Shown in pieces: positions 21,072-62,338 of a stretch of DNA of 64,000 nt. Under the pieces are notes generated by a model. The model saw only the letters and a program-made list of their open reading frames with translations. It made no database searches and was not told the origin of the DNA. Origin of the DNA: a virus (Duplodnaviria; Caudoviricetes); IMG/VR virus record IMGVR_UViG_3300036833_000307, positions 1 to 64,000 of that record; one strand, 5' to 3'. The stretch's first letter is position 1; every line of letters starts with the position of its first letter. The position numbers were made by a program, and so were the translations under genes.

Positions 21072-21158
21072 CCGCCCCCGGTTATGGAAACCGAGGGCGG
21101 CTGCGCCTGCCGCGCCGTGACGTGACTGGCTTAGACAAGCCGTGACTTGCCTGGCCGC
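21072..21158 (-). ncRNA. Stand-alone GGC-NN mini-array (solo guide 1)
   Basis: Minus strand ggcCA ggcAA gtcAC ggcTT gtcTA agcCA gtcAC gtcAC ggcGC ggca ggcgc then a hairpin (21072-21100); TTGCCT at 21186-21191 upstream. Confidence 0.75.
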
Positions 21159-21669
21159 AAAGCGATTAACACGTCCCATCCCAATAGGCAAGTTAAACTT
21201 TGCCATCACATACGCTATCCCCAGGGCTCAAGCTTCCTCTCCAAATGCTGGCCGAACCGGACGAGCTCGAACAGCGAGTTAGCCAACACGATCCGTTCGT
21301 CGCGCGGAAAGCGCCGGGCAAACTCACGTTCGAGGAAGCTGATCGTCTGGTCGACCTCGAACACCCGAGGATCGACCGTGCTGTGCCAGCTATCGCTATC
21401 CTTGTCATCGGATCGCCGCAGATGGATGACCATGGTCATCTCCGAAGTCGCTCACGACGAGCTTACCCCGAAAGGAGGGTGAATATGATCCCGTCCGCGC
21501 CGACCGATTTCTGGGACCGCGTCATCGACCGCCTCGCCCGCCACATCTGGGACCGCGAGACATCCAACAACGCCTTTGTCAGCACTTCGATGGAACGGCG
21601 GATCGCGCTCACAAAAACGCCCTCGGCCGAGACCGAGGGCGTTCATCCGGGTAGTGAGCAGCGGTCGGC

Positions 21670-22401
21670 TTAGCGACGGCGGCGCAACCGAGTGATCCCG
21701 AGGCCCAGGAGGCCGACGCCGAGCACGGCGAGCGTCGCCGGCTCGGGAACCGGGATCATAGTGCACGTATTGTCGGCATTGAGCGTGCAGACGCCTGATA
21801 CGCGCGGCTGCTTGAACTTTTCGAAGCCGTATGGACCACTCGTCCCAGTGGCCTGAGTTACCTGGATATCGGTTATGACTTCGCCCGCGCTCGCTTCGAT
21901 GGTGACGAAGTTCTGCCCCTTCGCCAACACGTCGGAAAAGTTGTTGCCCATGTTATCAGTAACGTAGATATTGCTGGTGCCGATGCCGTTCTGCTCATTA
22001 AGGATGGCGTCGGTCCAGCCGAAACCCGGGCCGGGTTTCATTTCCATCGAGGTCAGCAGGTTAGTCAGGCCGCCGGCCGCGGTCGGGCATTTGGCCGCGG
22101 TGTCGGCGCAGATCAGCGAGCCCTGGCCGACGCCGTCCGCCTGGAACAGCTGTCCGGTGCCAGCACCACCGAGCGAGCCGGCCCCTTTGGCGAAGGTGGT
22201 ATCGAACAGCACCGGCGACATGGTCTTGTTGGTGTCGCCGTTGTGACTTAGGCCCGGCAGCAGGTTGGCGGCCTCGAACTGGATGTTCTGTTCGCTCGGC
22301 TGCGGCACCTGCCCGTCGATGAACACGATGGTGGCGCGAGCTTGCGTAGCGATGGCGGCGAGCATTGCCGCCATCACCCCCGCCACGATCAGGCTACGCA
22401 T
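21670..22401 (-). CDS. PEP-CTERM sorting-domain protein
   Basis: Signal peptide plus C-terminal VPEPATLAVLGVGLLGLGITRLRRRR. Confidence 0.9.
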   Translation of the reverse strand: MRSLIVAGVMAAMLAAIATQARATIVFIDGQVPQPSEQNIQFEAANLLPGLSHNGDTNKTMSPVLFDTTFAKGAGSLGGAGTGQLFQADGVGQGSLICADTAAKCPTAAGGLTNLLTSMEMKPGPGFGWTDAILNEQNGIGTSNIYVTDNMGNNFSDVLAKGQNFVTIEASAGEVITDIQVTQATGTSGPYGFEKFKQPRVSGVCTLNADNTCTMIPVPEPATLAVLGVGLLGLGITRLRRRR

Positions 22402-23126
22402 TAGCTGCGCCTCCGCAGCCGCCGCACTGCGCCAAGGCCGATTAGCCCAACGCCCATAATAGCGAGCGAGGTCGGCTCCGGCACCGCGGTAACGCTGGAA
22501 ACGATGGTCTGCCCGCGGCTCAACAGCGTGCCGCCAGCGTTCAAGCTGAACACGGCGTTTTCAGTCAAGCTGAACGGCGAGCTGGCCGCAAACGCTACCG
22601 GCACATTGCCGGTCGAGAAGCTGTCAGTGGCGCCGATGGCGGTATGCGAGAAGGTATCGAGCAGCGTGCCCGGAGTGACCCCTGGAGCAGTGGCGCCCTG
22701 CCCGTTGGCCGTGTCGCCAAACCACGTCAGGGTAGCGGTCGAGCCATTGCTGTTCTGGTAGGTGCCCGAGCCAGACAATGTTGCCGTCGTAACCGGTGCG
22801 GTAAAGCCTATATCGCTCACCGTGACAGTGCCGCTGATCGCGCCGGCATTGTTGTTGATCACCGACAGGCTGCTGGTGTTGAGGATGTTGGCGGCTCCGC
22901 CAGCAACGCCGAGCTGGCTGGTCTGGATGCTGCCGTTAACCGTCACCCCGCCGAGCGTGAGGTTGTTGAGTTGCAGCGTGCCGGTGGCCGGGTTGGTATC
23001 GCAAACTGCGTTGTCGGAGCAAGTGAAGATCACGCCATTTATATCGGCGGCGATCATCAGCGTGGCGCTGGCCGGAACGGCATAAGTCAGCCCGAGCAGC
23101 GCCGTTGTGGTGAGCAGTCGCTTCAT
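22401..23126 (-). CDS. PEP-CTERM sorting-domain protein
   Basis: MKRLLTTTALLGL signal peptide plus VPEPTSLAIMGVGLIGLGAVRRLRRRS. Confidence 0.9.
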   Translation of the reverse strand: MKRLLTTTALLGLTYAVPASATLMIAADINGVIFTCSDNAVCDTNPATGTLQLNNLTLGGVTVNGSIQTSQLGVAGGAANILNTSSLSVINNNAGAISGTVTVSDIGFTAPVTTATLSGSGTYQNSNGSTATLTWFGDTANGQGATAPGVTPGTLLDTFSHTAIGATDSFSTGNVPVAFAASSPFSLTENAVFSLNAGGTLLSRGQTIVSSVTAVPEPTSLAIMGVGLIGLGAVRRLRRRS

Positions 23127-23268
23127 TGGGTTCTCCCTTTTCCAGAGGCCCTGGGTGATATAGCCGTAGCCTCCAGTGATGAATTTAGCCGAGAACCCGG
23201 CATGCATGTTGTAAGAAGTTCAGAGCAGCTGGGGTTGCAATCCGTTTACACCTAAGTTAGCCTCAGGG

Positions 23269-23763
23269 ATGGCCATTAAGATCAATCCCCTGCCTGCCGT
23301 GGCTCTGCTCCGCAAGAGCTTCTCGTACGATCCTCAAACGGGAATATTCACCTGGAAAAAGCATCGCAGCATGACCGGCAAGCAAGCTGGATCAACCATG
23401 AGTACCGGCCATGTCTTGTTGCGGCTAGCCGGTCATCAGATGCTCGCCCACCGCGTCGCCTGGTCCTATGTGCATGGCAGCGTGCCGGTCAACCAGGAGA
23501 TCGACCATATCAACAACAACCACAGCGATAACCGCATCGTCAATCTGCGACTGGTCACGCATCAGATGTCCTGTCAGAACCGATCAGTCGATGGCGGCAT
23601 TTCTCGCAGCGGGAGAAAATGGCGCGTCCATGGTATCTTCGACGGCAAGAGCATTATCGTCGGTTCTTATACCAGCGAGAAAGCCGCGGCCCGAGCCTCA
23701 GATCGCTGGCGGCGGATAAATTATCCCGGCTACATCGGCGGCAAACCCAAAGCCAAAGCCTGA
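23269..23763 (+). CDS. HNH homing endonuclease (AP2-like C-terminus)
   Basis: FSYDPQTG...AHRVAWSY...EIDHINNNHSDNRIVNLRLVT. Confidence 0.9.
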   Translation: MAIKINPLPAVALLRKSFSYDPQTGIFTWKKHRSMTGKQAGSTMSTGHVLLRLAGHQMLAHRVAWSYVHGSVPVNQEIDHINNNHSDNRIVNLRLVTHQMSCQNRSVDGGISRSGRKWRVHGIFDGKSIIVGSYTSEKAAARASDRWRRINYPGYIGGKPKAKA

Positions 23764-23830
23764 GCCTTGAGGCCGACAAACGAAAATGCGCCCCGCGAGA
23801 GGCGCATCTCCGTGTTTCGTCAGGCGTCGT

Positions 23831-24427
23831 TCAGAGGGCCGGCGGCGTCCTCCCAGCAGCTGCTGGCGTCGGCACGCCAGGGTGGCTCTCGGAGGGCACG
23901 ATGGCCATCGTCCAGCCGCCTTCTTCCGTCCAGTACGCCACGACATCCCAATTTTCGAGCACCCGTTGTGGTCCTTCCGGCGGGACAACGATAGGATGGC
24001 TCGGGAGCGGCGGCCATATTGTTGTCGGGGGCGGAACGACTATCGGATGCTCCGGCCTCGCATTGGGCGGCCATATTTCCGGCGGCAAAACGATCGGGTG
24101 TGCGGGGTAACCGGGCACTGCCGGGGGTGGAATCACGATCGGATGTTCCGGGTGCGTTCCATCAATGAAGCCGGGCGGAATCACGATAGGGTGCACAGGC
24201 AGCGGTGGCGGTCCACCTGGGGCGATTGGATGGGCTGGATATCCTGGGCTGGGCCAGATGCCAGGAGGTGGGCCGCCAGGCGCTATCGGATGGCTGGGCA
24301 TGGGGGGCGACACGCCACCCCAGAAGCCAGGGGGAGCGCCGCCTCCACCGCTAGGCGGCAGGATCGGGCCACCGCCGACTTCCGGCAGGTAGATTTTGCC
24401 CACGAAGACTGCGTCGTATTGCGGCAT
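23831..24427 (-). CDS. Proline-rich protein with P-x-H-P-I repeats
   Basis: Repeated PSHPI/PAHPI/PEHPI; GAGGAG RBS. Confidence 0.7.
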   Translation of the reverse strand: MPQYDAVFVGKIYLPEVGGGPILPPSGGGGAPPGFWGGVSPPMPSHPIAPGGPPPGIWPSPGYPAHPIAPGGPPPLPVHPIVIPPGFIDGTHPEHPIVIPPPAVPGYPAHPIVLPPEIWPPNARPEHPIVVPPPTTIWPPLPSHPIVVPPEGPQRVLENWDVVAYWTEEGGWTMAIVPSESHPGVPTPAAAGRTPPAL

Positions 24428-24559
24428 GACGGTTTCTCTCCTCAGTTTGATGGCTTGGTCGGGGGCGGAAAGTTCGGCGACGTTCCAGGTTATCGCCCAG
24501 TGTCCACGATCATGGAAGGGGTTTAGTTTTCCACCGCTGCGCTGGTCATCGTTCGGTCA

Positions 24560-24907
24560 TCACCGATTGGTTGGCACACCAGGCCCGACGAGTGCCGCCG
24601 CCTTCTCGAACTCCTGTTGCGCAGCTTGCTGCAAATCGCCGATTATCCGGGTCAGCCGTTCGAACCCCCGCATGAGGTCTTCGAACTGCTGTTCGGTGAG
24701 CATCGGCTGGGCATCGACATTGAGCAGCTGCACCGCGACTGGCACGATCTGAGAATAATTGATTAATGTCCGGATACAACTCCGCAGGTTACTATCCAAC
24801 TCAGCTGCCTTGGGATAACCGCTGGCTTTGCGCTGCGCAATGACCGCATCAGCTGCAGGCAACGGAGCAGCAGCCGGCAGGATAGCCGGCAGGACGGGAA
24901 GCGCCAT
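24560..24907 (-). CDS. Hypothetical protein
   Basis: 115-aa ORF with plausible RBS. Confidence 0.55.
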   Translation of the reverse strand: MALPVLPAILPAAAPLPAADAVIAQRKASGYPKAAELDSNLRSCIRTLINYSQIVPVAVQLLNVDAQPMLTEQQFEDLMRGFERLTRIIGDLQQAAQQEFEKAAALVGPGVPTNR

Positions 24908-25032
24908 GGATCAGCCCCTACGGTGGATTAAATCAGCAATATCGCCTGCTCGGATCTCTCACAAGGCCGCGACCAAGGCTTCCGCTTCGACATAGCGGCG
25001 CCTTAATATCTGGTCCAGCGTAATAGGAACAA

Positions 25033-25278: not shown

Positions 25279-25285
25279 GGTGCAT

Positions 25286-25876: not shown

Positions 25877-25907
25877 CGCAGCAATCCAAAGGAAGGAGAA
25901 ACCCAAC

Positions 25908-26762
25908 ATGCTGCTCACACGCCCATCGACCAAGACCCGCGGTAACGGTGCGCCTATGCCTCCCGCGCTGCCGAAGCGCCGCGGCCGGCCACCCAAGGTT
26001 GCCATGGCATTGGAAGTACCTGCCGCACCGGTCAAGCGCCGCGGCCGGCCGCCCAAGATAATCCGCGGATTGGAAAAAATGCGGCCGGTGAAAGCGAAAA
26101 TTCCGCCGCTCTCGGAGGGTGAGATCACTGCGCTATTGAGCGGCAAGCCACCACAGAAAATCGCTATCACCGCACCCAACCTTACCACCGCCACGATCAC
26201 CGTCGTCGGGGTAACCCCGTACGTCCAGAACGCCTTTACCGAAAAGCAACGGCTGATAATGGAAGAAACCCAACGCCAAGGTCAGCAGGCGCGTGGCAAA
26301 AAGGTGCGCAAGCCAAAGGATTTCGACGCCATCTACCGCAATGCCCAGCATCGCTCCAAGGAAGACTGGATTGGCATTCCGGCCGCCGCCTTTCGCAACG
26401 CCATGATCGACGCCACTCGTCTCGTCGGTGTCACCATGCAGCATGCCAAGATGAGCATTTTTATCGAAGCCGACGGCTACGACGCCCAAGACATGCGGGG
26501 ACTGGTCAAGATCCAGGGCGAGCCGCGACCATACAAGGCCCCGGTGCGCAATTCGAGCGGTGTCGCGGACATCAGATGGCGTCCGATGTGGGAAAAGTGG
26601 AAGGCCACCGTTCGTGTGACCTGGGATGCCGATCAGTACAGCGCAACCGACATCATGAACTTGATGTTGCGAGCAGGTCTCCAGGTCGGCATCGGTGAAG
26701 GCAGACCCAACAGTCCCAAATCCAACGGCCAGGACTGGGGCCGCTTTCGGATTGCCCCCTGA
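25908..26762 (+). CDS. RAMP/Cas7-like RNA-binding protein (VIPR-type effector candidate) with N-terminal AT-hook-like repeats
   Basis: TITVVGVTPY first strand, GIPAAAFRNAMIDA, IRWRP, C-terminal Gly-rich loop AGLQVGIGEGRP...DWGRF; two KRRGRPPK repeats; sits upstream of the GGC-NN array. Confidence 0.75.
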   Translation: MLLTRPSTKTRGNGAPMPPALPKRRGRPPKVAMALEVPAAPVKRRGRPPKIIRGLEKMRPVKAKIPPLSEGEITALLSGKPPQKIAITAPNLTTATITVVGVTPYVQNAFTEKQRLIMEETQRQGQQARGKKVRKPKDFDAIYRNAQHRSKEDWIGIPAAAFRNAMIDATRLVGVTMQHAKMSIFIEADGYDAQDMRGLVKIQGEPRPYKAPVRNSSGVADIRWRPMWEKWKATVRVTWDADQYSATDIMNLMLRAGLQVGIGEGRPNSPKSNGQDWGRFRIAP

Positions 26763-27283
26763 TGGCGGCGACACGCCGCCAGATCCGGGCCGAATTGCTA
26801 GCGCTCAAAAGCGACGACGGCCTCATCTACCCGGAGCGGGTACATGGATGGGCTCAGCGCCACCCGAATTCCGCGCTGTACAATTCGCTGAACTGGGACG
26901 ATGCCACAGCCGCGCACGAGCACCGGCTTTGGCAAATCCGACAGTTGATCCAGGTGCACATCACGATCGTCAGCGGCACCCGTGAATTCGTTTCGTTGAC
27001 CATCGACCGGGCAAGCGGCGGTGGTTATCGCGAGGTCGCCGATGTCGTCGCCTCCGGCAACCTACGGCAGATCATGTTGGACGATGCGCTCGAAGATTTG
27101 GAACGGGTGCGTCGCAAATACCAACTCCTCGACGAATTGGCGGGGGTCTGGAAGGCGGCAGAAGCCGCTCGTCCGACACCGCGCAGGAAACGGGCACAAC
27201 CCGCCCGCAAGAAGTCGTCACCCCGCCGACGGCGCCCGCTACCGGGCGGCGGTGATGATGGCCAGCCATCTGCGCCGGCATGA
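26762..27283 (+). CDS. Partner protein translationally coupled to the RAMP-like gene
   Basis: TGATG stop/start overlap; HPNSALYNSLNWDDATAAHEHRLWQIRQLI. Confidence 0.8.
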   Translation: MAATRRQIRAELLALKSDDGLIYPERVHGWAQRHPNSALYNSLNWDDATAAHEHRLWQIRQLIQVHITIVSGTREFVSLTIDRASGGGYREVADVVASGNLRQIMLDDALEDLERVRRKYQLLDELAGVWKAAEAARPTPRRKRAQPARKKSSPRRRRPLPGGGDDGQPSAPA

Positions 27284-27301
27284 AGCAGATGGATCGGCCA
27301 T

Positions 27302-28543
27302 GGCAGGCTCGGCAAGGCGCGTCTCGACGTGGCAGCGCATGGCATGTCTCGGCCGGACAGGGCAGGCACGGCAGGTCCTGGCGCGACGCGGTCGGGCAGG
27401 ACATGGCATGGCCGGGCAGGCCAGGCGGGGCGGGGCTCGACGCGGCTAGGCACCGCAACGCTCGGCAAGGCGGGTCCCGGCAGGCATGGCGTGGCGTGTC
27501 CAGGCCCGCCCGGGCATGTCCCGGCAGGCCGGGCACGGCGAGGCCTGTCACGACGAGCCACGGCTCGGCATGGCAGGCGCGGATGGCGCGGATGGCAAGC
27601 CAAGACGGGGCCGGGCAGGCGTGGCACGGCACGGTCAGTCCGGGCTACGCGCGTCCAGGCTTGGCAGGCGTGGCATGACTGGGCTTGGCGTGGCAGGGCG
27701 GAGCCCGCCCCGGCAGGCATGGCATGACTGGGCTTGGCGCGTCTCGTCTGGGCTTGGCGCGGCAGGCATGGCTCGGCCCGTCTTGGCCCGGCACGGCGGG
27801 GCAGCGCAGGCGTGGCAGGTCCCGACGAGGCATGGCCGGGCCTGCCGCGGCTCGGCGGGGCATGGCGGGGCAGGCGCGTCATGGCATGGCCCGTCCCGGC
27901 CTGCCGAGGCGTGGCCCGCCACGGCATGGCAGGCGTGGCAAGCCTCGGCGAGGCAAGGCGTGGCAAGGCCCGGCAGGGCAGGCGCGGCAAGGCGGGGCGG
28001 GGCCGGTCCTGGCTCGACATGCCCCGGCTCGGCAGGCACTGGCTCGGCAATGGCTCACCGGCCGAGCATGGCAGGCGTGGCTTGGCCTGGCGGGGCGTGG
28101 CCTGTCACGGCCCGGCCCGTCTCGGCAGGCTTGGCGCGACAGGCCCAGGCATGGCTCAGCTCGGCTCGGCGGGGCAGGCGTAGCAAGTCTCGGCTGGGCA
28201 AGACGTGGCAAGGCGAGACGAGCCTGGGCAGGCACGGCACGGCGAGCCTTGGCTTGGCTAGGCGTGGCCCGCCAGGGCATGGCAGGCATGGCGAGGCTAG
28301 CCTCGGCAAGGCGCGGCCCGGCGCGGCGTGGCAGGCCAGACGCGGCAAGGCGGGGCTCGGAGCGGCGCGGCGTGGCCAAGCGCGGCAGGCGCGGCAGGCT
28401 CGGCAACGGTTCACCGGCCGAGCCCACCCCGCGGCAGGCATGGCACGGCCTGGCCCGGCCCGACGAGGCACGGCGTGGCGAGACTAGGCAGGCGCGGCCA
28501 GGCATGGCTTGGCAAGGCTGGGCGCGGCAGGCAAGGAGTGGCA
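27302..28543 (+). repeat. Non-coding array of GGC-NN pentamers in about 23-25 units delimited by GGCA (putative guide-RNA array)
   Basis: Strict 5-nt period (GGC, sometimes GTC/GAC/GCC/AGC/CGC, plus 2 variable nt), mostly 7-12 pentamers per unit, phase reset by GGCA; all overlapping ORFs are low-complexity artefacts. Confidence 0.9.
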
Positions 28544-30834: not shown

Positions 30835-31143
30835 ATGGCAAAAAAACACAAGGACAAGTCGGCCAAGGCCGGGCTCCGCCCGGCGCCGGCCGGCGAGGAT
30901 CGCAAGCGCTTCACCGTCTATGTCGACTGCGAACACGAGGACTTCCAAGGCACGAAATTCGCCATCACCACGGGACGGCTGCTGATGCGTGTTATCGGCA
31001 AGATCGCCGAAGGCAAGCTCAGCGGCCCGATCAGCATGGGCGAGACGACGATCGGCCAGTGGAAAACCCACTGGCGCAACGATGATCCGGCCGACCGGAG
31101 ACCGAAGCGCTCGAGGTCCAAGCCCACAGCGACCACCACATGA
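30835..31143 (+). CDS. Hypothetical protein
   Basis: GAGGA RBS; follows a promoter at 30729-30757. Confidence 0.55.
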   Translation: MAKKHKDKSAKAGLRPAPAGEDRKRFTVYVDCEHEDFQGTKFAITTGRLLMRVIGKIAEGKLSGPISMGETTIGQWKTHWRNDDPADRRPKRSRSKPTATTT

Positions 31144-34826: not shown

Positions 34827-35055
34827 TTGCGGCCGGTGAACCGTCGCCGCAAAGCCAGCCAAGCCTGCCGCGCCCAACCCGGCCCTGCCTGGCCGCGCCA
34901 TGTCCTGCCTGGCCTGCCGCCCCTGGCCCGGCCTAGCCCTGCCTGGCTGCGTCTCGCCATGCCGTGCCAAGTCCAGCCCTGCCTCGCCCGACCAAGCCAC
35001 GCCTGCCATGACCCGCCGTGCCTAGCCTGCCAGGGCCTGCCGCGCCTTGTCCCAG
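34827..35055 (-). ncRNA. Stand-alone GGC-NN mini-array (solo guide locus 2, about 3 units)
   Basis: Pentamer period on the minus strand; TTGACG(35081-86)-N18-TACGAT(35057-62) promoter; ends in a hairpin with the GACGGTTCACCG loop. Confidence 0.85.
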
Positions 35056-35155
35056 CATCGTATGCTCTATTTTACCGCGGCGTCAAATCAGCTCTCCCGC
35101 ACACCCTGCGGGGCAGAAAAGCGTCTCTGCGCTCAGACGCAGAAAGCATTCCATC

Positions 35156-37942: not shown

Positions 37943-38039
37943 GACCCCGCAGCCGGCAAGCACCGAACCCGCGGGGTCGCCGTGCCTGCCCTGGCTTGCC
38001 GGGCCATGCCTCGCCGTGACACGCCAGGCCAGGCCTGCC
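37943..38039 (-). ncRNA. Stand-alone GGC-NN mini-array (solo guide 3)
   Basis: ggca + 9 pentamers + ggca ggcac, then a hairpin; TTGATC(38073-78)-N17-TACCTT(38050-55) promoter. Confidence 0.85.
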
Positions 38040-38074: not shown

Positions 38075-38569
38075 TCAATGGAGAGCGTTATCACTCAAAA
38101 TCCGGCTCAGTGCACGCAGAGCCATCCTAAACATTGCCTTGCGTTCAGCCCCTCTCACCACACTTTCCCAGATCAGGGCATCGAACAGAACATTCCACGC
38201 ATCATGACCCAGCATGGTGCAAACACGCGCCAGCAAGTGGCGTGCACGCGCTTTCTCGGCTGAGGCGCTGATCGGCAACTCGGTTACAAGTTGGCTGTAG
38301 ACCAAACGTCCACGGACCTGAGCCAGATGAGCCATCTCGGCGAACCATTCACCTGCAGCGGCCAAGGCTGCGACGTCTTCACCAACATCACCGGCGGCAG
38401 CAATCTCCTCGAGCACGTTACGTGGCAGCACTCGCCCGCCGACTATGTCGCCCTTGGCAATCCGCTCCGCCGTCGCCCCTACAGGCGCTGGAGCGATGTA
38501 CTGGCCACTCCTCCGCTCCCACACCAACTCAATGGTGTTGCGGACAGCTCGACGCTTGTAGCCAGTCAT
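38075..38569 (-). CDS. Hypothetical protein, possible late-transcription regulator
   Basis: Helical C-terminus (VLFDALIWE...MFRMALRAL) resembling alphaproteobacterial phage Q-like proteins. Confidence 0.45.
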   Translation of the reverse strand: MTGYKRRAVRNTIELVWERRSGQYIAPAPVGATAERIAKGDIVGGRVLPRNVLEEIAAAGDVGEDVAALAAAGEWFAEMAHLAQVRGRLVYSQLVTELPISASAEKARARHLLARVCTMLGHDAWNVLFDALIWESVVRGAERKAMFRMALRALSRILSDNALH

Positions 38570-45040: not shown

Positions 45041-45651
45041 CCATGCGCCCCCCTGGCCCGCGTGTGCGGCACATCACAATGGACAATTTTCGCGGGTATC
45101 GGGGGAACGAAACCAGAAACAATGAAGGCTATCGTGCTGTGCATAAATTTCCCTCCCCCGTGACCGCACCATGACGGATCGATGATCCGCCGGTGAAAAT
45201 GCCGGTGTGGAGGGCTGGTCTGCCGCGGGAAAAGCCTTGCTGCCGGATTTTCCGTCGCCTATATATTTCCATGGCGACGGGAAACCGGCGTTGCACAGGG
45301 GCTGCTCAACAAACCCTGCTGCTGCTCCGCGGTGTGGCTTGCAAAACCTCACACCGGTAGTTTTCTCCCAAACCGAAGGCCGGGGGGCGGGCTACGCTTC
45401 CCGGCCTTCATCGTTCAGGAAGCTATGCAGCCTAGCGCCAAACCGCGCTGCACGGCAAACCGAATTTCCGTCATAGCTTAATAGGCTAGCTGCTTGATGC
45501 GTCAGGCAAAAATCGCCATATAACCTTGTGCCGGATAGTTATCCCCAGGCTTATCCCCCAGAAACATTGAGCAACACTGCCGTGAGTTCCTGAAACCCGC
45601 TCGGGTCTCCGGGCGGAATTCCCCGCCCGGGTAGACAAGGAACCACTCATC

Positions 45652-46697
45652 ATGGCCTCATTGTTCCAGGTTCATAAGAACTCTGGCGACATTGTCGCGG
45701 TCAGCGCCCGCACCATGCTGGGCATGCTGGCCGATCCCTATTCGGCCGCGCGCCTGATGCGCGAGCTGGCGTTCGATCGCGAGGTCGAGGTCGAGCTGCG
45801 CGACGGGCCGGCCAAGGTCAAATACGCTGACCCATTACCCAAACGGCAGCGCGAGCTGCCGATCATCCCCTACGATGCTCAGGTGAACCTCGTCTTCGTG
45901 CTGCCGGCGCTGGTGAAGTGCCGCGCCAGTTCGGAGATGGAGGCCAAGCACACCATCGAGGAAATCCTGCTGCGCGCCGGCCGCTGGCCGAGCGACGGCT
46001 TCGATCTCATTCTCCGGCCCGAGGACCTGAAGGCGTTCATTGAAAGTCTGGAGATCAAAAGCACTCTGGCGATCCAGGACGTCGAATTCCTCAACGTCTA
46101 TCCATGCAAGCAGCTGACCCACGAGCGGAGGACCTGACCATGCTGATGTCGGTATTCCGCCAGGGCCAGCCCACGCTGCAGATCGACCACCTGGTCGCCA
46201 TACGCGAGGCGGTCGATCCGGATCACGCCGGCATGGTGTTGCACGCCTGGACGCAGAACGCGACCGTATTGATCGGTCTGCGTTCCGGCGAGGCGATCAT
46301 CAAGCCTGCCGCCGACGGCGATGAGCAGCTCAGCTTCGAGGCGCTCTATGACACCTGCATTTCGCTTTCGCAGTGGAAGCAGATGAAGGCTCAGCGCGTC
46401 GTCAAACCTGAGGACCTCGCACCGCATCTCTACGAGCTCGATGTTCTGCTCGAACAGGCTCGTCCGGTGCGTGTGCGGCTGCGCATTAAAGCCAAAACAA
46501 CCACCGAAGTAAGTCAGCTTCTCAATCGCTTGGTCCGTGAAGACAAAGAATTTCAGGATAGCTTGATGGCGAAGCTTACCGAGGCGTTGTTGATACAGGA
46601 CGACGGCTCGATCATTTCTACTTCAGTACACAAGGTTGAGCACGTTGCGCCTGGAGATGCGCCGCTCTGGTCGTTCGTCCCAGAGGAACCTGGCTGA
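45652..46697 (+). CDS. Two hypothetical genes (45652-46137, 46140-46697)
   Basis: AAGGA / GGAGG RBS; downstream of promoter at 45493-45521. Confidence 0.65.
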
Positions 46698-46752
46698 TGG
46701 CTCGGAAACCGCGCTTGCATTTCCAGTCCATGCCGCTAGACTGCATTTTGTC

Positions 46753-46850
46753 GGCTCGACGCGGCATGGCGCGACTTGGCCAGTCCCGGCTCGGCTTGGC
46801 AGGCACGGAGAAGCAGGACCCAGAAGCACCATGCCGCTTCCGGGTCCTGC
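46753..46850 (+). ncRNA. Stand-alone GGC-NN mini-array (solo guide 4)
   Basis: 9 pentamers + ggca ggcac + hairpin; TTGCAT(46715-20)-N16-TAGACT(46737-42) promoter. Confidence 0.85.
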
Positions 46851-46938: not shown

Positions 46939-47760
46939 ATGTCTGATATCGTAAGGATGTTATCGAACCCGCTGGCAAAATCCGCATCCCAAACCGATTT
47001 CTTTCTCCTTACATTGGCGGAATGTGCAAAATTCGGCGTGCCGCCGCAGGCGCTTGCGCTGCTGCGCGATGTGCATAGCATGTTGGGATATTCCAAACCG
47101 CTCGGCGAAAAACAGATCAGCGCCCTGGCTGGGCCGTTGGTGGCGTGGCGCACCGATCCCCGGCAGCCGCATTTCGAGCGCGTTGTCGATCTCGAACGGC
47201 TGGCCTTTCACCAGCGCGCGCTGATCGCCTTTGGCGGCGGCAAACCTGGCGAAATGGTGGGCCGTGCCGAGATCGTATACGCGATGGGAAATCTGCTGCA
47301 CGGGACCTCGCCGCCGGAATACTACGAAGTATTCCAGTGGGCCTCCGTCGATACGCTCGCGGAGATCGAGGGAGACAGCAAGGCGAAAATCCTGGCCGAC
47401 CGTGAAAAGGACGGCTGGACAGCCGTCGCCGATGCGGAAGTAACCCAGCCCGGTGGGCGGCTCTACGCCACCTACCAGGAAATCTGCACGTCGATCCGCC
47501 GCGAGGCAATCGCCGGACTGGAGCGGAACCCGGCGGGGCATCCACGCAACATACTGCGGCCAATGGCCGCTCTGGCCATCGCCAACCATGCCCGGATCAA
47601 ACAGGAACTCCTCGCCGAGGGGCGTCCCGAAGTGGTGGAGACACTCGACCGCACGATCGAACAGATCCGCGGCATGTTTCCTGGTCTTGGCTCGTTGGAC
47701 GATGAGCTCAAGCGGCGCAACCAGGCCGCTCTCAACGAGGTCCTGGAAGAACTCCTGTGA
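46939..47760 (+). CDS. Hypothetical protein (273 aa)
   Basis: Preceded by the repeated leader; contains a near-match to solo guide 4. Confidence 0.75.
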   Translation: MSDIVRMLSNPLAKSASQTDFFLLTLAECAKFGVPPQALALLRDVHSMLGYSKPLGEKQISALAGPLVAWRTDPRQPHFERVVDLERLAFHQRALIAFGGGKPGEMVGRAEIVYAMGNLLHGTSPPEYYEVFQWASVDTLAEIEGDSKAKILADREKDGWTAVADAEVTQPGGRLYATYQEICTSIRREAIAGLERNPAGHPRNILRPMAALAIANHARIKQELLAEGRPEVVETLDRTIEQIRGMFPGLGSLDDELKRRNQAALNEVLEELL

Positions 47761-49877: not shown

Positions 49878-50630
49878 ATGTCGAAATCTGTCGCTCCGCG
49901 TCAGCCTCTCGATGAGCTGGCGCGGGCGTTGAACTCGTTCGACCACCGCCACCGCATCGACGAGATCTTTTTCAACTGGCTGGAAATGAGCGCGATCGCG
50001 ATCTCCAACGCGGTCGACCGGGCTCAGTACGACAAACGCGAGGCCCGCTACATGGCCATCGTCGGCAACTATTCGCGCGACGAGGCGCAACTGCTGGCCG
50101 AGATGACGGGCATGCTCTGGCTCGCGATCGCCAGAGGCGGTGCCCCGCTCAGCGAGCTGATGACCAGGCTCGAGCTTGGCAGCAAGGCGATGAAGAGCCG
50201 GCTCGGCCAGTTCTACACGCCATTCAACGTTTCCTACATGATGGCGAAAATGCTGCTCCAGCCACGCGACCAACTGGTCGAAGAGATTAAGGCGAAGGGC
50301 TACGTCACCATGATGGAGCCCGCATGCGGTGCCGGCGGTATGGTGCTTGCGTTCGCACAGGCATTCGAGGAAGCCGGGTTCAACCCCCACACTCAACTGT
50401 ACGTTGCCGCGGTCGACATCGATCAGGCCGCAGTGCACATGACCTATCTGCAGATTGCGATGCTCAGCATTCCCGCTGTCGTCTTCCAAGGCGATAGTCT
50501 TCGCGTCAACACTTCGGCGCACTGGCTGACCCCGGAATATGTTTCCGGCCGCTGGAACCTCCGCCTCAACGGCGAGACACCCAAGCCGGTTCCCGGGATT
50601 GCCCGCTGGAGCATCCGCCAGCAGATATGA
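49878..50630 (+). CDS. N6-adenine methyltransferase-like protein (SAM-binding part only)
   Basis: GQFYTP, EPACGAGGM, AVDID, QGDSL; no NPPY-type motif before the stop. Confidence 0.8.
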   Translation: MSKSVAPRQPLDELARALNSFDHRHRIDEIFFNWLEMSAIAISNAVDRAQYDKREARYMAIVGNYSRDEAQLLAEMTGMLWLAIARGGAPLSELMTRLELGSKAMKSRLGQFYTPFNVSYMMAKMLLQPRDQLVEEIKAKGYVTMMEPACGAGGMVLAFAQAFEEAGFNPHTQLYVAAVDIDQAAVHMTYLQIAMLSIPAVVFQGDSLRVNTSAHWLTPEYVSGRWNLRLNGETPKPVPGIARWSIRQQI

Positions 50631-51094
50631 CCAAACCCCCGAGGCTTCGCGCCTTGGGGGTTTTATTTTATTTTGCACTGTTGCGTGGGAGGGGTAAACC
50701 GGAGTAAGCTGGCTGATCCTGATAGGAAGTCGGCTGATGTCGTTCCTGTTGTCCCGCCCGGGTTATCCCCCAGCTTATTCGTCCTGGCCCATCGCCGCGA
50801 AAACCCGTCACACCAATATAGACTACGGGAGCACGGAGGTTGGCTATGCCCGAACCACGACGGCGGTCGGGGCGGATGACCATTCGCGAGGCGACGGTCG
50901 AGGTCGCGACTATGTTGCTCGGCACCGCCATCGGGTTGGTTATCGTCCTCGGCTTGGCTTACTGGTTAGGTCGCCACTTTCTCGTGGCCTTCCTGGGCGC
51001 CGTATCCGGACACTACTAGTCCGGGTACGGTGTTCCATCGTTTATGTGGTCTATGAAAATGTTTTGAGTTTAGTGGAAGATCGGCTAAGCTGTA

Positions 51095-51215
51095 GGCGCG
51101 GCTCGTCTAAGCCCGACATGGCAGGCTCGGCAAGACAAGGCACGGCGGGGCTCGGCATGGCCGGGCTTGGCAGGCGCGGCCTATGGACCCGGAGGAAACC
51201 TGCCTCCTCCGGGTC
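51095..51215 (+). ncRNA. Stand-alone GGC-NN mini-array (solo guide locus 5, 2 units)
   Basis: 5 + 9 pentamers separated by ggca, then a hairpin; TTGAGT(51064-69)-N16-TAAGCT(51086-91) promoter. Confidence 0.85.
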
Positions 51216-51253: not shown

Positions 51254-52057
51254 ATGAGTGAAGATCCAACATTGCCGAGGTTCTTCCCGCCGGAGGGTGC
51301 GCCGAAGGTCATCCAAGCCATTGTCGAAGTCATGCGGAACATCCCGGCGGTTCCCAAAAGTGGCCGCAATCTGGAGCAAAAATATAACTACGTCGAAGCA
51401 ACCGTCCTGACCGCAAAAATCCAGGATGCGATGATCAAGGCCGGCCTCGTTCTGGTGCCACGCGAGCTTTCGCGTTCAGTACAATCCGGTATTCTGTTTA
51501 TTCGTTTTGCCTTTGATGCGCACAGTGGCGATCAGTCGATTTTTGCCATCGGAAATTTTACCGGAGCATGTCGTTTCCAGTTTCAGCGTAGTGGCGCGTT
51601 TGACGACAAAGCGGCAAATAAATGCCTCACGACCGCGCTTAAACAATTCGAAATCGCATTGTTTAAAATCCCGGCTGATGTTGCCGATATAGAACGGGAT
51701 GAAGAGGTGCGCGAACCTTCGGGACGCGGCGACGGCCGAGACAACCCGCCCGATGAACCGCCGGATGACCGGCCGCCGCCGCACGACACCGCACCAGATG
51801 ACCAGCCACCCAGCGATGATGGCCCGCCGGACGACGAGCCTGTCGGCGATGCCGAACCGGGCGACGAAGCTCCAGTCGACTTCCAGACCCGGGTGCGCGA
51901 ATTCGCCCAGCGGCTGAAGACGGCGCAGAACCAACGCGAAGCCGACGCGCTGTGGAGCGACGAAGCGGTCATGCTACGACAGTGCAATGACACCACGTAT
52001 CGCTGGCTGGCCGATGCCTACGAAGGCCGCTGGAATATCCGTCCCCCGAAAGTATGA
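51254..52057 (+). CDS. ERF-family single-strand annealing protein
   Basis: VPKSGRNLEQKYNY...DDKAANKCLTTALKQF...LFKIP. Confidence 0.8.
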   Translation: MSEDPTLPRFFPPEGAPKVIQAIVEVMRNIPAVPKSGRNLEQKYNYVEATVLTAKIQDAMIKAGLVLVPRELSRSVQSGILFIRFAFDAHSGDQSIFAIGNFTGACRFQFQRSGAFDDKAANKCLTTALKQFEIALFKIPADVADIERDEEVREPSGRGDGRDNPPDEPPDDRPPPHDTAPDDQPPSDDGPPDDEPVGDAEPGDEAPVDFQTRVREFAQRLKTAQNQREADALWSDEAVMLRQCNDTTYRWLADAYEGRWNIRPPKV

Positions 52058-53167: not shown

Positions 53168-55235
53168 CGCCGAACGGCTGGCCCAGGCGGTGCTGCTGTT
53201 CCATCGCGGCGGCCCGTGGACGGCCTTAGACAGCGGCCACTGGCTGGCGCTGACCGGCAAGGTGGACTGCACCACCAAGGTGCTCTGCGACCTTGCCCGC
53301 CGCATCCTCGAGACCGCCGAGCGTGAGGTAGTGATCCAGCTACCGTTGGAGCCATTGAGCGATGCGGACATCCGGCAGGCCGCGCTAGGCCCCCTGGAAT
53401 GGAAGCAGCGCTGATGCCGCGCTGGTCTGAGGTCGTCACCATCACCCTGCCGGACGGCACACAGGCTCAAGCCATCGTCTGTGGCAGCGGCAAGCGTCCG
53501 CGTACGCCGCGCTGCCGCTGCGGCCGGACGTCGAGCATCCAGTGCGACTTTCCGCTGCTGGATGGCAAGACCTGCGACCAACACCTGTGTCGCTCCTGCG
53601 CCGTCCCGGTCGGGCGCAACCGCGACTACTGCCCCGAGCATCCACGGTGAGTACCACCCGCCGCACCCCTCGTTACGAGGACGTCCAGCCGGTCAAGGAC
53701 CTCGTCACCAACGAGGAGATGTACGAGGCGATGGTCTACATGGACCAGAGCCCGCACGACTATGCCGAGGCGGTCGCTGACGCTGAGTACGCCGCGTACA
53801 AAATCCGCATGGCCGAGGCAGTCGGCATCCTCGTGTCGGGCGAACGGAACGCCGCCCGCCAACAAGCTGATGCCCGCACCTCGCAAGCCTATGCCAACGC
53901 CGTTGAGGACAACCGCCGCGCGCAGATGCAAGCCGAGATGATGAAAGCCAGGCGCGCCGCTGCACAGTTGAAAATCGAGGTATGGCGAACCCTTCGCGCC
54001 GACCAACGCGCCCGGGATGTGTCCGAACCAGGAAGTAGATGATGACGCGTGCGAAAAGGGCTCTCCAGCCTAAGCCGAAGAGCCCCGTGCCGCGTCCGGC
54101 GTTGCCACGTCCTGCCAAGCCTCGTCTCGCCGCAGCATGTCATGCCTGGCCGTGTGTGGCATAGGCACATCACGATATGCCACATTTTTTATCCTTGGCA
54201 ACGGTTCGCTGATGCCCTGCCGCGACTGTAATCACTGGAACCGGGTTCCGGTCTGCGCTGCCCTCGAGCGCTTTACCCCCGGCTGGTGTGAAGTCCAGCA
54301 CCGTGCGGTATTCCCGCACTATCACTGCCCCAGGTGGGTACAACGCGAGGTCACCCACGCCGAGGTCGGCCTCACCCGCGACGAAGTCGCCTGGGCGCGC
54401 CAGCATCGTGACGACCCATCGGTTCGCGCCCTCAACTTCCTGTTCCGCCGCATCCAGTTCCAGCCGCAGAACCCCGCGATCCGCGCGGAATTCACCACGA
54501 CGCTGGAAATCTGGCGCAGCAAGCGACGTATCGCATTCGGTCAACCGGAGGAAATGCCATGAGCGGGACCGGCTTCCCCGAAGGTTTCGCTATCGTTCAT
54601 GCCGGACAACTCTACCGACCGATTGGCACCCGGGAATTCGTCAACACCAAGGGTCAGCGGGTGATGTGCATCGACTGGCGTTCGGTCTGTCCGGAGTGCG
54701 GTGAGGCTTTCACCCTCACCACCGGCCGGCGCTGGCAGCGCCCGCACGCACGCCGTTGTCCGGGTTGTCGAGCGCCGGGCCAAGCGGTGCAAGATGCTCG
54801 TATCGGGCAGCGATAGACCCTATATAATAAGCCGCAACGATCTGCCTCCCGGCCCGAGCATCGGTGACCGGCAGTGAACCCGGCTGCTCCCGGGGGAAAG
54901 GCATATCAATGTCAGAACCAGTATCCCGCATCCAGATCCTCGCTCCTGAGCGGCTGGATGCCTTCTTCGCACACTATCATTCCGGCGCGGACTACGGGCT
55001 GTTTCGCCAGGGTCTCGCCCGGCTGCTGGAGCTCTGCTCCCGCTATTGCTCAAATCTTCCTGCTGGCGCGTACCGCGTCGCCAGCCTCATGCCTGACCAC
55101 CGCGATTTCCAATCAATCGACTGGTGCATTCAGGAAAATCCGGAGCCATCCGGATTCCACGGCAAGCACATCATCAATGGTGGCTTAAACCACCACAGCG
55201 ATGTTTCCACTCCAACGTGGAGCATCAACACTTAG
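53154..55235 (+). CDS. Small hypothetical genes (53154-53414, 53414-53650, 53647-54042, 54212-54562, 54559-54816, 54909-55235)
   Basis: Coupled ORFs, several Cys-rich. Confidence 0.6.
54058..54151 (-). ncRNA. Stand-alone GGC-NN mini-array (solo guide 6)
   Basis: 13 pentamers on the minus strand then hairpin + T4; TTGCCA(54196-201)-N18-TATCGT(54172-77). Confidence 0.8.
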
Positions 55236-57281: not shown

Positions 57282-57293
57282 GGAGGACGGGCG

Positions 57294-58111: not shown

Positions 58112-58114
58112 GCC

Positions 58115-59324: not shown

Positions 59325-60001
59325 CGAAAGACAATGGGATGAGTAACAACCCAGATGTTCGCTCAATCGCTTCGGATGTCGATATCGACGCTCTGTTCGA
59401 AGGCAATACCGTTGCCAGGCTTTTGCCAGGCGGTGGTTATGCCATCGAGGCAAGGCCTCCAGGAGGCCGCCAATGCGGCACCTGCACGCTGTGCTGTAAG
59501 CTCGTCCCGGTCCCCGAGATCCGGAAGTCCGCCGGCGAGCGCTGCCGTTATCAGCAGGCCGGCAAAGGCTGCCGGGTGTATCGCAAGCCGGGCTTCCCCC
59601 GCAGCTGCCTGCTATGGAGCTGCCGGTGGCTGTCTGATCCCGATACTGCGGGGCTGGCCCGGCCGGATCGCTCGCACTGCGTGATCGACGTGATGACCGA
59701 CGTGGTGCAACTCGGCGGCCAGCAGGTGCCGGTCATTCAGATCTGGGTGGACCCGGCGTTTCGCGACGCCTGGCGCACCCAGGAGATGAAGGCCTACATC
59801 GAGCGGGTCGGCAAAAGCTATGGCTGCATGACGATCATTCGCTGGGACGCCGAAAGCGGCCTGGTGGTCTGTCCACCGGCACTTTCAGAGGACGGCGAAT
59901 GGCACGAGCGATCCGGCCAATCGATGCCGCGCGACGCGTTCGAGGCGCAGATCCTGGCTGACGCCAGGGCCGCGAAACTTGCGCAAACAAAATCCAACTG
60001 A
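59321..60001 (+). CDS. Cys-cluster (YkgJ-like) protein
   Basis: CGTCTLCCK...C...GCRVY...P.SC...C.WL...RPDRSH. Confidence 0.7.
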   Translation: MTKDNGMSNNPDVRSIASDVDIDALFEGNTVARLLPGGGYAIEARPPGGRQCGTCTLCCKLVPVPEIRKSAGERCRYQQAGKGCRVYRKPGFPRSCLLWSCRWLSDPDTAGLARPDRSHCVIDVMTDVVQLGGQQVPVIQIWVDPAFRDAWRTQEMKAYIERVGKSYGCMTIIRWDAESGLVVCPPALSEDGEWHERSGQSMPRDAFEAQILADARAAKLAQTKSN

Positions 60002-60017
60002 ATCCTACTCGATCCAA

Positions 60018-60089
60018 TAACCCCCCCCACGGTCCGGGCCCCAACGAACTTGTTCGTTGGGTTCCCGGTGCGGCCGTGGGGGGTTTTTG
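60018..60089. terminator. Long hairpin terminator between convergent operons
   Basis: aacccccccacgg...ccgtggggggttttt. Confidence 0.75.
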
Positions 60090-60092
60090 CGT

Positions 60093-62171
60093 TCAGCGTC
60101 GCCAGGAGTGCTGTGGCCGGTCCTGATAGCCTCGCTCCAGGTCGAAGGTCGCGCTGTTGGCGAACAGCCACTCGCACGCCGCGGCGTAGTCGGGGTCGAT
60201 CCGCGCCGCTTCGGCCAGCACCGAGTTCATCAACTCGGCGTACTGCCGGATATCGCCTGGCGGCCAGGGCGAGCCGTCCGCGAGCACGAAGCCATGCTGG
60301 TTGGGTCGTGATGGATCGGCGCTCTGACCGCGCTCGCCGGTCAACTCCTGTGATTGTTCCCAGGTGCCACCGGCCCAGTACCAGTTGTAGCAAAGCCCGT
60401 TAGCGGGATTGTACTGCCCGTGCGCGGAAAACCGCTCGGTGATGTATGGCTTGAGCTTGTCGAGACAGTCGCGTGCCTGCGGCAGCCTCATGCGGATCGC
60501 GCGGATCAGCGTCGAGAGGTAGTAGTCCTGCTGCCACGGCGCCATGGCCGGCGGTGTCTCGGAGCCGTAGACGCCAGGGATGCTCAATTGCGCCTCGGTT
60601 GCGGTTTTTTCCAGCGTCTTCAGCCGCGTGAAGTTGTCCTGCACCATCGGCGCGAACACCGCCGACATTGCCGGCGAGATGTAGGCGCTGTCGATAAGCT
60701 GGCGCAGCGACCAAGCTTGCGAGCGCACCTGGATGTCGCCGCCGTAGACACCTTTCTCGTTGCCGCGCGAGCCGGGCGGCACCCACATGATGGCCCAGCC
60801 CGCCTGCGCGTCCAGCATATCGAGCCGATGCCGGTCGCCGGTCAGGAGATACGGCAGGTAATGCGCGTCCGGCTGATGGCCGGCTTCCGGCGACCAGCCG
60901 GTTCCCGCGGTGTCGATCGGCTGGGTCAGTCCGCCCTGCGCTGCGCTCTGGCGCGGATCGGCCCACAGCAGCGGGCGATCTTGCGGGTTGAGCCAACGGT
61001 AGTGCTCGATGTCCCACAGGTGCCACGGACAGGAACCCGCTGCGTCCGACATCGCCACCGCGTAGGCGTAGGCGCGCGGGTCCTGTGAGATGAGCCAGGC
61101 GGCGTTCCACAGCGGGTCGGGGCCGATGTCCGGCCGGCCGCCGCCGGCGCCCATGTACATCGCGAAATCGCCCGGACCCAGGGGATCGAACTTCGGTCCG
61201 TCGCACGGCTTGGCGAGCACCGCTTCGGCGACCGGACCCGGGCCGTAGACGTGCACCGCGCCAGAGGCCTCGAGCGCGGCGCGATCGTGGGCGATGAAAT
61301 GCCCTGGCGCATCGCCGATCCAGTACGTGTGGTGCCAGATCTGGTATTGGTGGTGCGTCAGCGGCCCGACGGCATAGACCTGCTGACCATTTGCGGTGAG
61401 CGCCATGGTATAGGTCTGCGCGCCGCCTTCCGGTCCCATCGCGCCGTCGTTGCGGAAGCCGAAGACGATGCGGACAGTATCGTCTTGGTAGCGGCGGATA
61501 TCGATTACCAGCCGCATAGCCGCGTGCACCGGCAGCACGTAACGCGTCTCGCTGGCGGACGATCCCTCGAAATACATGCTGCCTGGCCCGCTGGCGAGGA
61601 TCTGGTCGAGATCGAAGACCATGGGACCGTCATTGAAATCGAGCGTCAGCACCACGGATTTAGGCAACGGTCCGATGCCTACCATCGTCCCAGCCGATGC
61701 TGGATCAGCAAGGCTGAGTTCTACATCGTGGCTCTCGCCAGGAGCCAATGCGGGAGCGGCGATAGTGATCGCGCCATGGCGGACGGTGCCGTCCTCATGA
61801 ACCATCAATGGATTGAGTTGTTGGCCGGCGATGCCGGCGCCGGCTGGCACCTGACCTGGCGCAAACGGCAACGCGAAAGTCAACAGTCGCTCAGCGATCG
61901 CAGCAGGACCGATATTGCGCAGTCGCAGAGTTGCCAACGTGGCACCCGGCACTGGCGGCAGTTCGGTATCCGGCGGCTGCTCTCCCGGTGGGACAATCGG
62001 GCCCGGATGGCCGGGCACCGGCGGTATCGGGTGCTCCGGGTGCAGCGGCGGCTGCGGTGGCTCTGGTTCCGGTTTTCCGCCACCTGGCGGATGTTCCGGA
62101 TGCGGCGGATGCTCCGGATGCGGCGGATGCTCGTCGGGTTTGCTTGTGTCGGGCTTGGTGGGCTTGGCCAT
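60093..62171 (-). CDS. Large protein with Pro/His N-terminus, possible polysaccharide-active or tail-associated enzyme
   Basis: TFALPFAPGQVP...DGTVRHG, YMGAGGGRPDIG, HQP..HYLPYLLTGD, QVRSQAWSLR; resembles PcRGLX/YetA-like architecture (from memory). Confidence 0.5.
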   Translation of the reverse strand: MAKPTKPDTSKPDEHPPHPEHPPHPEHPPGGGKPEPEPPQPPLHPEHPIPPVPGHPGPIVPPGEQPPDTELPPVPGATLATLRLRNIGPAAIAERLLTFALPFAPGQVPAGAGIAGQQLNPLMVHEDGTVRHGAITIAAPALAPGESHDVELSLADPASAGTMVGIGPLPKSVVLTLDFNDGPMVFDLDQILASGPGSMYFEGSSASETRYVLPVHAAMRLVIDIRRYQDDTVRIVFGFRNDGAMGPEGGAQTYTMALTANGQQVYAVGPLTHHQYQIWHHTYWIGDAPGHFIAHDRAALEASGAVHVYGPGPVAEAVLAKPCDGPKFDPLGPGDFAMYMGAGGGRPDIGPDPLWNAAWLISQDPRAYAYAVAMSDAAGSCPWHLWDIEHYRWLNPQDRPLLWADPRQSAAQGGLTQPIDTAGTGWSPEAGHQPDAHYLPYLLTGDRHRLDMLDAQAGWAIMWVPPGSRGNEKGVYGGDIQVRSQAWSLRQLIDSAYISPAMSAVFAPMVQDNFTRLKTLEKTATEAQLSIPGVYGSETPPAMAPWQQDYYLSTLIRAIRMRLPQARDCLDKLKPYITERFSAHGQYNPANGLCYNWYWAGGTWEQSQELTGERGQSADPSRPNQHGFVLADGSPWPPGDIRQYAELMNSVLAEAARIDPDYAAACEWLFANSATFDLERGYQDRPQHSWRR

Positions 62172-62237
62172 CGGTTGTCTCCTCTTTCAGGATCAACTTG
62201 ACGGGACTGCTAAAATCTGGCACACATGAATGTGCCA

Positions 62238-62338
62238 GGCAGGCCGGGCTCGGCATGACGTGGCACGGTGCGGCGCGGCTGGGCTCGACATGGCATGGCC
62301 CGGCAGGCACGGGACCCTCCGGCTTCGGCCGGAGGGTC
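62238..62338 (+). ncRNA. Stand-alone GGC-NN mini-array (solo guide 7)
   Basis: ggca + 12 pentamers + ggca ggcac + GC hairpin with TTCG loop, antisense in the gap between two structural genes. Confidence 0.85.

Follow-up and report, generated by a model that had tools for sequence, protein, structure and literature searches.

Dispersed GGC-NN tracts in an uncultivated 102-kb phage: stand-alone VIPR guide genes probably aimed at rival alleles of their flanking genes

Short tracts of GGC-NN pentamers, dispersed between the genes of an uncultivated phage known from IMG/VR record IMGVR_UViG_3300036833_000307, were investigated. The record is 102,563 bp long, with direct terminal repeats and 62.6 % GC, and its bases 1–64000 are referred to here as the window. 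From their sequence features, the seven tracts in the window and further copies outside it are confidently assigned to stand-alone vrRNA genes (solos) of a VIPR system encoded by the phage itself. The assignment to VIPR rests on a protein with a Cas7 fold and a profile match to the Vipr protein of phage SUSP1, on a vipr–vap–array gene layout, and on GGY/NN repeats with a tail and a one-base skip in their apparent targets. The solos are probably VIPR guides coded against the alleles that rival phages carry of the gene flanking each solo, the owner's own copy having escaped; linkage of the two would be favoured because, without the resistant allele beside it, a guide would turn on the genome that carries it.

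VIPR systems, first described in bioRxiv preprints of 2026, consist of Vipr, a minimal RAMP protein, together with vap genes and vrRNAs of 9–16 GGY/NN repeats with a 3' tail; double-stranded DNA is recognized via the NN bases only, with every third target base skipped, usually the wobble position (10.64898/2026.04.26.720920). Staggered arrays with 1-nt overlaps have been described (10.64898/2026.04.26.720920, fig. S18), as have filament and triplex structures (PDB 36pp; 10.64898/2026.04.26.720927), and natural targets have so far been reported for a few enterobacterial and Pseudomonas phages. Solo vrRNAs are known from F5 satellites and from phages that have lost vipr, those of the F5 satellites soaking up or redirecting the Vipr of a rival phage (10.64898/2026.10.15.759431).

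A period-5 scan of the whole genome revealed 11 clusters of GGC-NN tracts, compared with a mean of 0.08 in first-order Markov surrogates; one is a 1.24-kb main array and the others are short. All seven tracts listed in an earlier note on this DNA were present on the strands given there, the low coordinates of its minus-strand sites being the ends of hairpins, and two further solos lie outside the window. The loci are as follows.

21070–21191, minus strand: solo 1, directly upstream of terL (terminase large subunit, 19563–21050); promoter TTGCCT-17-TAATCG (21163–21191), guide 21108–21156 (9 pentamers), hairpin 21070–21107
34827–35086, minus strand: solo locus 2; promoter TTGACG-18-TACGAT (35057–35086), 4-unit mini-array 34866–35051, tail hairpin with GGTTCACCGG loop
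37943–38078, minus strand: solo 3; promoter TTGATC-17-TACCTT, guide 37987–38035 (9 pentamers), tail hairpin 37943–37986
46715–46850, plus strand: solo 4; promoter TTGCAT-16-TAGACT, guide 46753–46801 (9 pentamers), tail hairpin GGACCC...GGGTCC
51064–51214, plus strand: solo locus 5; promoter TTGAGT-16-TAAGCT, short unit 51095–51123 (5 pentamers), guide 51124–51172 (9 pentamers), tail hairpin
54058–54201, minus strand: solo 6; promoter TTGCCA-18-TATCGT (54172–54201), guide 54092–54151 (12 pentamers, without a closing GGCA), terminator-like hairpin
62198–62338, plus strand: solo 7; promoter TTGACG...GGCACA-N6-TGTGCC, guide 62242–62305 (12 pentamers), tail hairpin 62313–62338
70158–70211, minus strand: further solo outside the window
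91318–91372, minus strand: further solo outside the window

Each unit comprises 8–12 pentamers of the form G(G>T,A,C)C-NN and is closed by the 4-mer GGCA. As in VIPR, whose vrRNAs have at least four and typically 9–16 tandem GGY-NN pentamers, the scaffold is conserved and the NN positions vary, both among units and between the syntenic solos of this phage and a relative, G001 (IMGVR_UViG_3300036846_001176; 104.6 kb, syntenic, 65–84 % nucleotide identity), which was found via its terminase protein. The tracts do not form a CRISPR array with identical repeats, unique spacers and adaptation genes: there is no repeat-spacer structure and no Cas1 in the genome. A coding pentapeptide-type repeat was ruled out by the frame breaks that the 4-mer GGCA introduces, and binding of the GGC triplets by a TRAP-like ring protein or their folding into two-layer G-quadruplexes was dropped given the VIPR literature and the Cas7 fold. 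The earlier proposal of guides read on the GGC strand, expressed from independent mini-genes and associated with the RAMP-like protein agrees with published vrRNAs, which have GGY/NN repeats and a 3' structured tail and are bound by Vipr.

Most tracts carried a sigma70-like promoter, as had been claimed. Since a generic promoter/terminator scanner showed no overall enrichment, finding promoters for two solos only, a dedicated test was run on 18 solo upstream regions, nine from this phage and nine from G001; a −35/−10 pair above the 95th percentile of random windows was present in 13 of them (Mann–Whitney P = 4e-10). Eleven solo promoters share TTGACG, a spacer of ~18 nt and CATnAT, plus an AAAA run. 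The −10 of many solo promoters in both phages is covered by the palindrome GGCACA-N6-TGTGCC (62219–62236, 54164–54181, L027:7369–7438 and several G001 solos), which resembles the operator of a dimeric DNA-binding protein, so that solo expression may be regulated. The promoter class is not exclusive to guides, because a copy (TTGATG...AAAA...GCCATA-N6-TGTGCC) at 45494–45532, upstream of the gene at 45652–46137, has no pentamers behind it.

The hairpin ending that had been reported for all tracts was borne out, every solo being followed by GGC(A/G)C-GG and a GC-rich hairpin, in the tail form GGCA-GGC(A/G)C-GG plus hairpin that corresponds to the structured 3' tail of vrRNAs. The solo tail hairpins had predicted energies of −26 to −36 kcal/mol and z-scores of −2 to −4. 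Only two included a clear U-run, and classical intrinsic terminators were rejected as an explanation of the tails because most hairpins lack one. Two hairpin classes recur. The GACCC...GGGTC stem is found again at the end of the main array, and the GGTTCACCGG-loop hairpin of the solo locus at 34866 recurs inside the main array (~28035–28070 and ~28397–28430) and at the ends of the G001 arrays, so that the solos possess tails cognate to those of the arrays.

The genes with which the solos would operate are found together, on the plus strand, as follows.

25956–26762: vipr, encoding a RAMP/Cas7-like protein of 268 aa (open reading frame open from 25908)
26762–27283: vap-like accessory gene (173 aa) with an ATGA overlap with vipr; it follows vipr and precedes the array, the order of published loci
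27296–28540: main staggered vrRNA array of ~22 units of 8–12 GGCNN pentamers, each closed by GGCA

The RAMP-like nature that the earlier note had suggested for the first of these products was upheld by two analyses. An AlphaFold2 model of the protein (predicted local distance difference test score 77) gave type VII Cas7, Csm3 and Cmr4 as its best Foldseek matches (E = 1e-4, probability 1.0), and a profile built from 25 homologues matched only one entry in PDB, 'SUSP1 Vipr protein' (36pp; E = 3.8e-4), over the G-loop region with its motif G.G.GRP. More than 1200 metagenomic homologues of the 268-aa protein were found. On this modelled fold and profile match, the product of 25956–26762 qualifies as a Vipr, i.e. 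a minimal RAMP related to the published protein. The vap-like protein matched phrog_15946 and had no Pfam match. The locus thus has the minimal VIPR composition of vipr and one candidate vap followed by the array at 27296, in a genome without Cas1. Within the main array the next unit starts at once after GGCA, which shifts the phase by one base, and the units overlap by 1 nt, as in published staggered arrays. Two internal hairpins with the GGTTCACCGG loop, at the positions given above, interrupt the array; because they split it, it may consist of three sub-arrays, each with its own tail. Lopez et al. call a vrRNA solo when there is no vipr on the contig or when the nearest vipr is >20 kb off. 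The solos with guides at 46753, 51124, 54092, 62242 and 70158 lie 20–43 kb from vipr and that at 91318 lies ~64 kb away (on the linear record); those at 21108, 34866 and 37987 lie at 5–11 kb.

Units were decoded by the published 1-nt-skip rule and searched over the phage's own genome (205 kb, both strands). For six of the nine solos the best site genome-wide was within 1.5 kb, in the flanking gene, compared with 19 of 180 shuffled guides; the corresponding figures in G001 were 5/7 solos and 9/140 shuffled guides (28/320 for the pooled shuffled controls of both phages). Units internal to the arrays showed nothing special, with a top site within 1.5 kb in 4 of 44 cases. The near-cognate sites in the phage's own genome are as follows.

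20611–20637, plus strand: site of solo 1, inside terL, codons 139–147; 15/18, skip base on wobble
38268–38294, plus strand: site of solo 3, in the gene at 38075–38569 (minus strand); 15/18, unique genome-wide top, skip base on wobble
47407–47433, plus strand: site of solo 4, in the gene at 46939–47760, codons 157–165; 16/18, unique top
53922–53957, minus strand: site of solo 6, in the gene at 53542–54042 (plus strand); 16/24, tied for top
62502–62537, plus strand: site of solo 7, in the gene at 62337–63086 (minus strand); 17/24
Codons 2–11 of the downstream gene (382 aa): site of guide 70158; 15/20
HK97 gp10-like neck gene (neck/tail-completion): site of guide 91318; 18/22
27062–27094, plus strand: site of the first array unit (27306–27364), inside vap; 17/22

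In seven of these eight near-matches (seven solos and the first array unit) the skipped base fell on the wobble position of the flanking gene. The guide of solo 7 is out of register and reads codon positions 2 and 3, position 2 matching in 12 of 12 codons. The pairing would be with the coding strand for four guides and with the template strand for the other four, in keeping with DNA as the target.

The alleles of related phages often matched the guides better than did those of the owner. The terL guide matched its own terL at 15/18 positions, compared with 17/18 in G001, 18/18 in L015, 17/18 in L016 and 16/18 in two more metagenomic terL relatives. Likewise, the neck guide at 91318 scored 18/22 in self and 21/22 in G001, which was the sole match to its 20-base pattern in all of IMG/VR, and guide 70158 scored 15/20 in self and 17/20 in G001, a serine codon being AGC in the former and TCG in the latter. 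Guide 54092 matched its own site at 16/24 and the orthologous G001 site, the clear top there, at 19/24. G001 lacks the terL, neck and 70158 solos, whose guides match its alleles well. None of ~13 self matches in three phages was perfect. The apparent targets thus have the features reported for VIPR, with a 1-nt skip that is mostly aligned to the wobble position and sites in coding genes of competitors, up to the 18/18 match in the L015 terL. On these sequence comparisons each solo is most likely aimed at the rival allele of its neighbour.

A similar arrangement was seen elsewhere. A third phage, L028, which encodes a Vipr homologue, has solos 4–6.5 kb from vipr, one of which matches its own neighbour at 16/20, and a guide upstream of vipr that matches the adjacent portal gene at 18/22. 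In L018, a metagenomic relative whose terL is 66 % identical, a solo upstream of terL matched the owner's terL at 22/30 and the L015 terL at 26/30, against a background of 16. L018 possesses five long vrRNA-like genes (L018:1100–2520) of 15–28 (G/T)GC-NN units, each following a GTCTATACT box and ending in a G-rich tail (GGTGGGTGGGTG); with these K-G-C-NN units, L018 seems to represent another flavour of VIPR within this group of phages.

The comparison with related phages that the earlier note had called for showed that both the presence of solos and their NN content vary. Besides arrays of its own, G001 contains eight short tract loci, and seven of them were scored as solos. Promoter, scaffold and tail were conserved between syntenic solos of the two phages and the NN content was largely different. 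Solo 4 and its G001 counterpart have kept promoter and tail and differ in NN, and in solo 7 the tail and promoter are ~90 % conserved with an NN identity of ~44 %; the position of solo 3 is occupied in G001 by a 10-unit array. Some solos occur in one genome only, having been gained or lost between relatives as ~160-bp cassettes. Two genes that overlap in G001 are separated here by the 91318 cassette, which has ATGAG at both junctions. The VIPR genes are themselves matched: the first G001 array guide (L008:10881–10939, equivalent to G001 30881–30939) matches vipr of the present phage (26429–26461) at 20/22 and its own vipr at 18/22, so that each of the two phages seems to target the VIPR genes of the other.

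Mismatches between guides and the owner's alleles were compared with homologues. Met occurs in the owner alone at one position of the terL motif DQNQKxFYQTTAGG, where the residue is Gln in six relatives and His in one, both read as CAn by the guide. In the 273-aa protein encoded at 46939–47760 the owner has K→T and I→V changes, most of 50 homologues having K and I, as guide 46753 reads; none of these 50 was fully compatible with the guide (best 7/9 residues), and no loci related by this protein were found in IMG/VR. Further self mismatches result from codon-family switches in Leu (CTN/TTR) or Ser (TCN/AGY), among them the two Leu CTN/TTR mismatches of the first array unit on vap, and such switches are the only synonymous changes that a wobble-skipping code can see. 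All seven self mismatches of solo 7 are wobble transitions, six of them synonymous. As judged from the alignments, the self mismatches are either derived substitutions of conserved residues or synonymous codon changes, as would be expected of alleles that had escaped.

These observations suggest the following mechanism. A sigma70-type promoter would drive a short RNA of 9–12 GGC-NN pentamers, closed by GGCA-GGCRC-GG and a hairpin tail. By analogy with published VIPR, the product of 25956–26762 would polymerize on the GGC triplets and display the NN pairs, which would bind double-stranded DNA with every third base skipped and silence transcription. The predicted targets are the versions that related phages carry of the flanking genes, namely the terminase large subunit gene, the neck/tail-completion gene and several genes of no known function, and a few substituted bases where the guide would bind should suffice for the owner's copy to evade it. 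During mixed infection, essential genes of the rival would be shut off by the guides, and linkage to the guide-resistant allele would keep recombinants from targeting themselves. More tentatively, guide and altered neighbour may form a linked poison–antidote pair that spreads like a gene drive; the adjacency could also be the footprint of local writing of guides.

Several results weigh against rival alleles of the flanking genes as the targets. Three positions have a solo in both phages, and at these the G001 alleles match the guides of this phage no better than do its own; nor do the G001 solos fit the alleles of this phage better than those of G001, so that the asymmetry is one-way in this pair. 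A single perfect natural target was found (18/18, L015); exact 1-nt-skip scans of IMG/VR returned nothing for the terL guide or for guide 46753. There was no significant neighbouring target for the solo locus at 34866–35051, and guide 51124 of solo locus 5 had only a weak candidate, in the N6 DNA methylase gene (49878–50630; PF02384, E = 5e-8), at 13/18 in self and 15/18 in G001. Three self sites match at 83–89 %, over the preprints' target cut-off of 80 %. One of them is the site of solo 4 in the gene downstream (16/18, 89 %), and since the preprints report no self-targets at that cut-off, self-repression or a very recent escape is possible at this locus. The comparison is also drawn from few genomes.

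The main rival explanation is autoregulation, in which the solos would be tuned partial-match repressors of their own flanking genes, for instance in the timing of late genes. The sites are indeed in the phage's own neighbouring genes, the three matches at 83–89 % lend it some weight, and the palindrome over the −10 of several solo promoters hints at regulated expression. It is nevertheless disfavoured, because none of the self matches is perfect and relatives without the solo match better, up to 18/18; moreover, self mismatches that are derived at conserved residues, or synonymous, follow a pattern of escape and not that of a maintained operator. Autoregulation is therefore regarded as unlikely. 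Use of the solos as decoy or anti-VIPR RNAs that soak up or redirect the Vipr of a rival is less likely still. The published F5-satellite solos do work in this way (10.64898/2026.10.15.759431), and in this phage as in G001 the first guide of the array points to vipr/vap of the other phage, but the phage encodes a Vipr of its own, its solo tails share GGCRC-GG plus hairpin and the GGTTCACCGG loop with the hairpins of its own array, and the targets are single-copy essential phage genes rather than multi-copy decoy sites.

About as unlikely as decoys is a templated process that copies codon positions 1 and 2 of the neighbour into a pentamer cassette, after which the gene drifts, selection for linkage not being the cause of adjacency. 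Cassettes that share promoters and tails and have completely different NN content would fit such local writing, as would one cassette cleanly inserted between two genes, its junctions showing ATGAG microhomology; each guide corresponds to an inferred older state of the flanking gene, and point mutation of 18–24 specific bases is hard to picture. However, no candidate enzyme was found, reverse transcriptase, Cas1 and tyrosine integrase being absent from the whole genome, in line with the earlier note, no intermediates were seen, and selection for linkage accounts for the adjacency without new biochemistry. That the tracts have no function as RNA, being inert repeats or similar by chance, is very unlikely, given 11 clusters where 0.08 were expected, promoters and hairpins conserved across two phages while NN varies, and non-random matches to the flanking genes. 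Guides coded against the rival alleles of flanking genes thus remain the preferred explanation of the solos.

The remaining features of the genome can be described briefly. Decoding of the array unit at 27419–27482 gives G-P-F/L-D/E-F/L-V-Y-A-D/E-P-P-W, which corresponds to the region of motif IV in adenine methyltransferases; exact scans with the 24 bases of this unit found no target in GTDB representative genomes or IMG/VR, and it did not match the phage's own methylase. An Erf-like single-strand annealing protein is encoded at 51254–52057. Megablast and blastn searches of the window and of the vipr–vap region against GenBank phages returned nothing, and no Rfam family reached its gathering score anywhere in the 64-kb window. 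Since no integrase was found in the genome, the phage is probably lytic.

The system resembles type II VIPR of Escherichia phage SUSP1 and a Pseudomonas fulva prophage in having a minimal RAMP beside a small accessory gene, GGY-NN pentamers and a structured 3' tail, and in the one-base skip on the wobble position, the use of either DNA strand and the targeting of competing phages. It differs in that the protein, at ~235–268 aa, is larger than SUSP1 Vipr (202 aa) and only weakly similar to it in sequence, in having a simple GC hairpin after GGCRC-GG in place of the SUSP1 pseudoknot tail, and in combining a staggered main array with guides scattered over at least nine loci genome-wide. Like the solos of F5 satellites and of VIPR-null SUSP1-family phages, those described here are stand-alone vrRNA genes apart from vipr, some of which aim at relatives, with self scores below non-self scores. 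The F5 and VIPR-null solos, which target REP decoys, vipr or other vrRNAs, lie in satellites or where a vipr–vap1 locus has been deleted and left a scar. The present phage, by contrast, is VIPR-positive and has many solos, each of them next to the phage's altered copy of the gene that the guide would target, the terminase and neck genes among them. Adjacency of guide and target was not found in the text of 10.64898/2026.04.26.720920, 10.64898/2026.04.26.720927 or 10.64898/2026.10.15.759431.

There is also a likeness to the Cas7 backbone of class 1 CRISPR systems, which has a homologous RAMP fold and polymerizes along the guide with periodic unpaired positions. Each subunit would account for two paired and three bound guide bases here, compared with five and one in class 1 CRISPR, and the phage has no repeat-spacer array, Cas1, Cas2 or other cas genes. 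In virus-borne mini-CRISPR arrays, an archaeal virus carries a few guides against close relatives, its own sequence being mismatched; those arrays consist of ordinary repeat-spacer units, depend on Cas proteins of the host, have contiguous guides and do not lie beside the targeted gene.

The solos would represent a different deployment of VIPR, with many single-guide genes scattered through an uncultivated 102-kb phage and its relatives and directed against the rival version of the neighbouring gene, such as those for terminase, portal and neck. The owner alleles would show what escape from a wobble-skipping code looks like, through changes at conserved residues or switches between the two codon families of serine or of leucine. 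If the tentative poison–antidote arrangement is real, only genomes or recombinants with the block of guide and resistant allele would survive a mixed infection, and the blocks would spread one module at a time. The findings provide a testable model of allele-specific warfare between sibling phages, and a point from which to ask how vrRNAs might be acquired when neither Cas1 nor reverse transcriptase is present.

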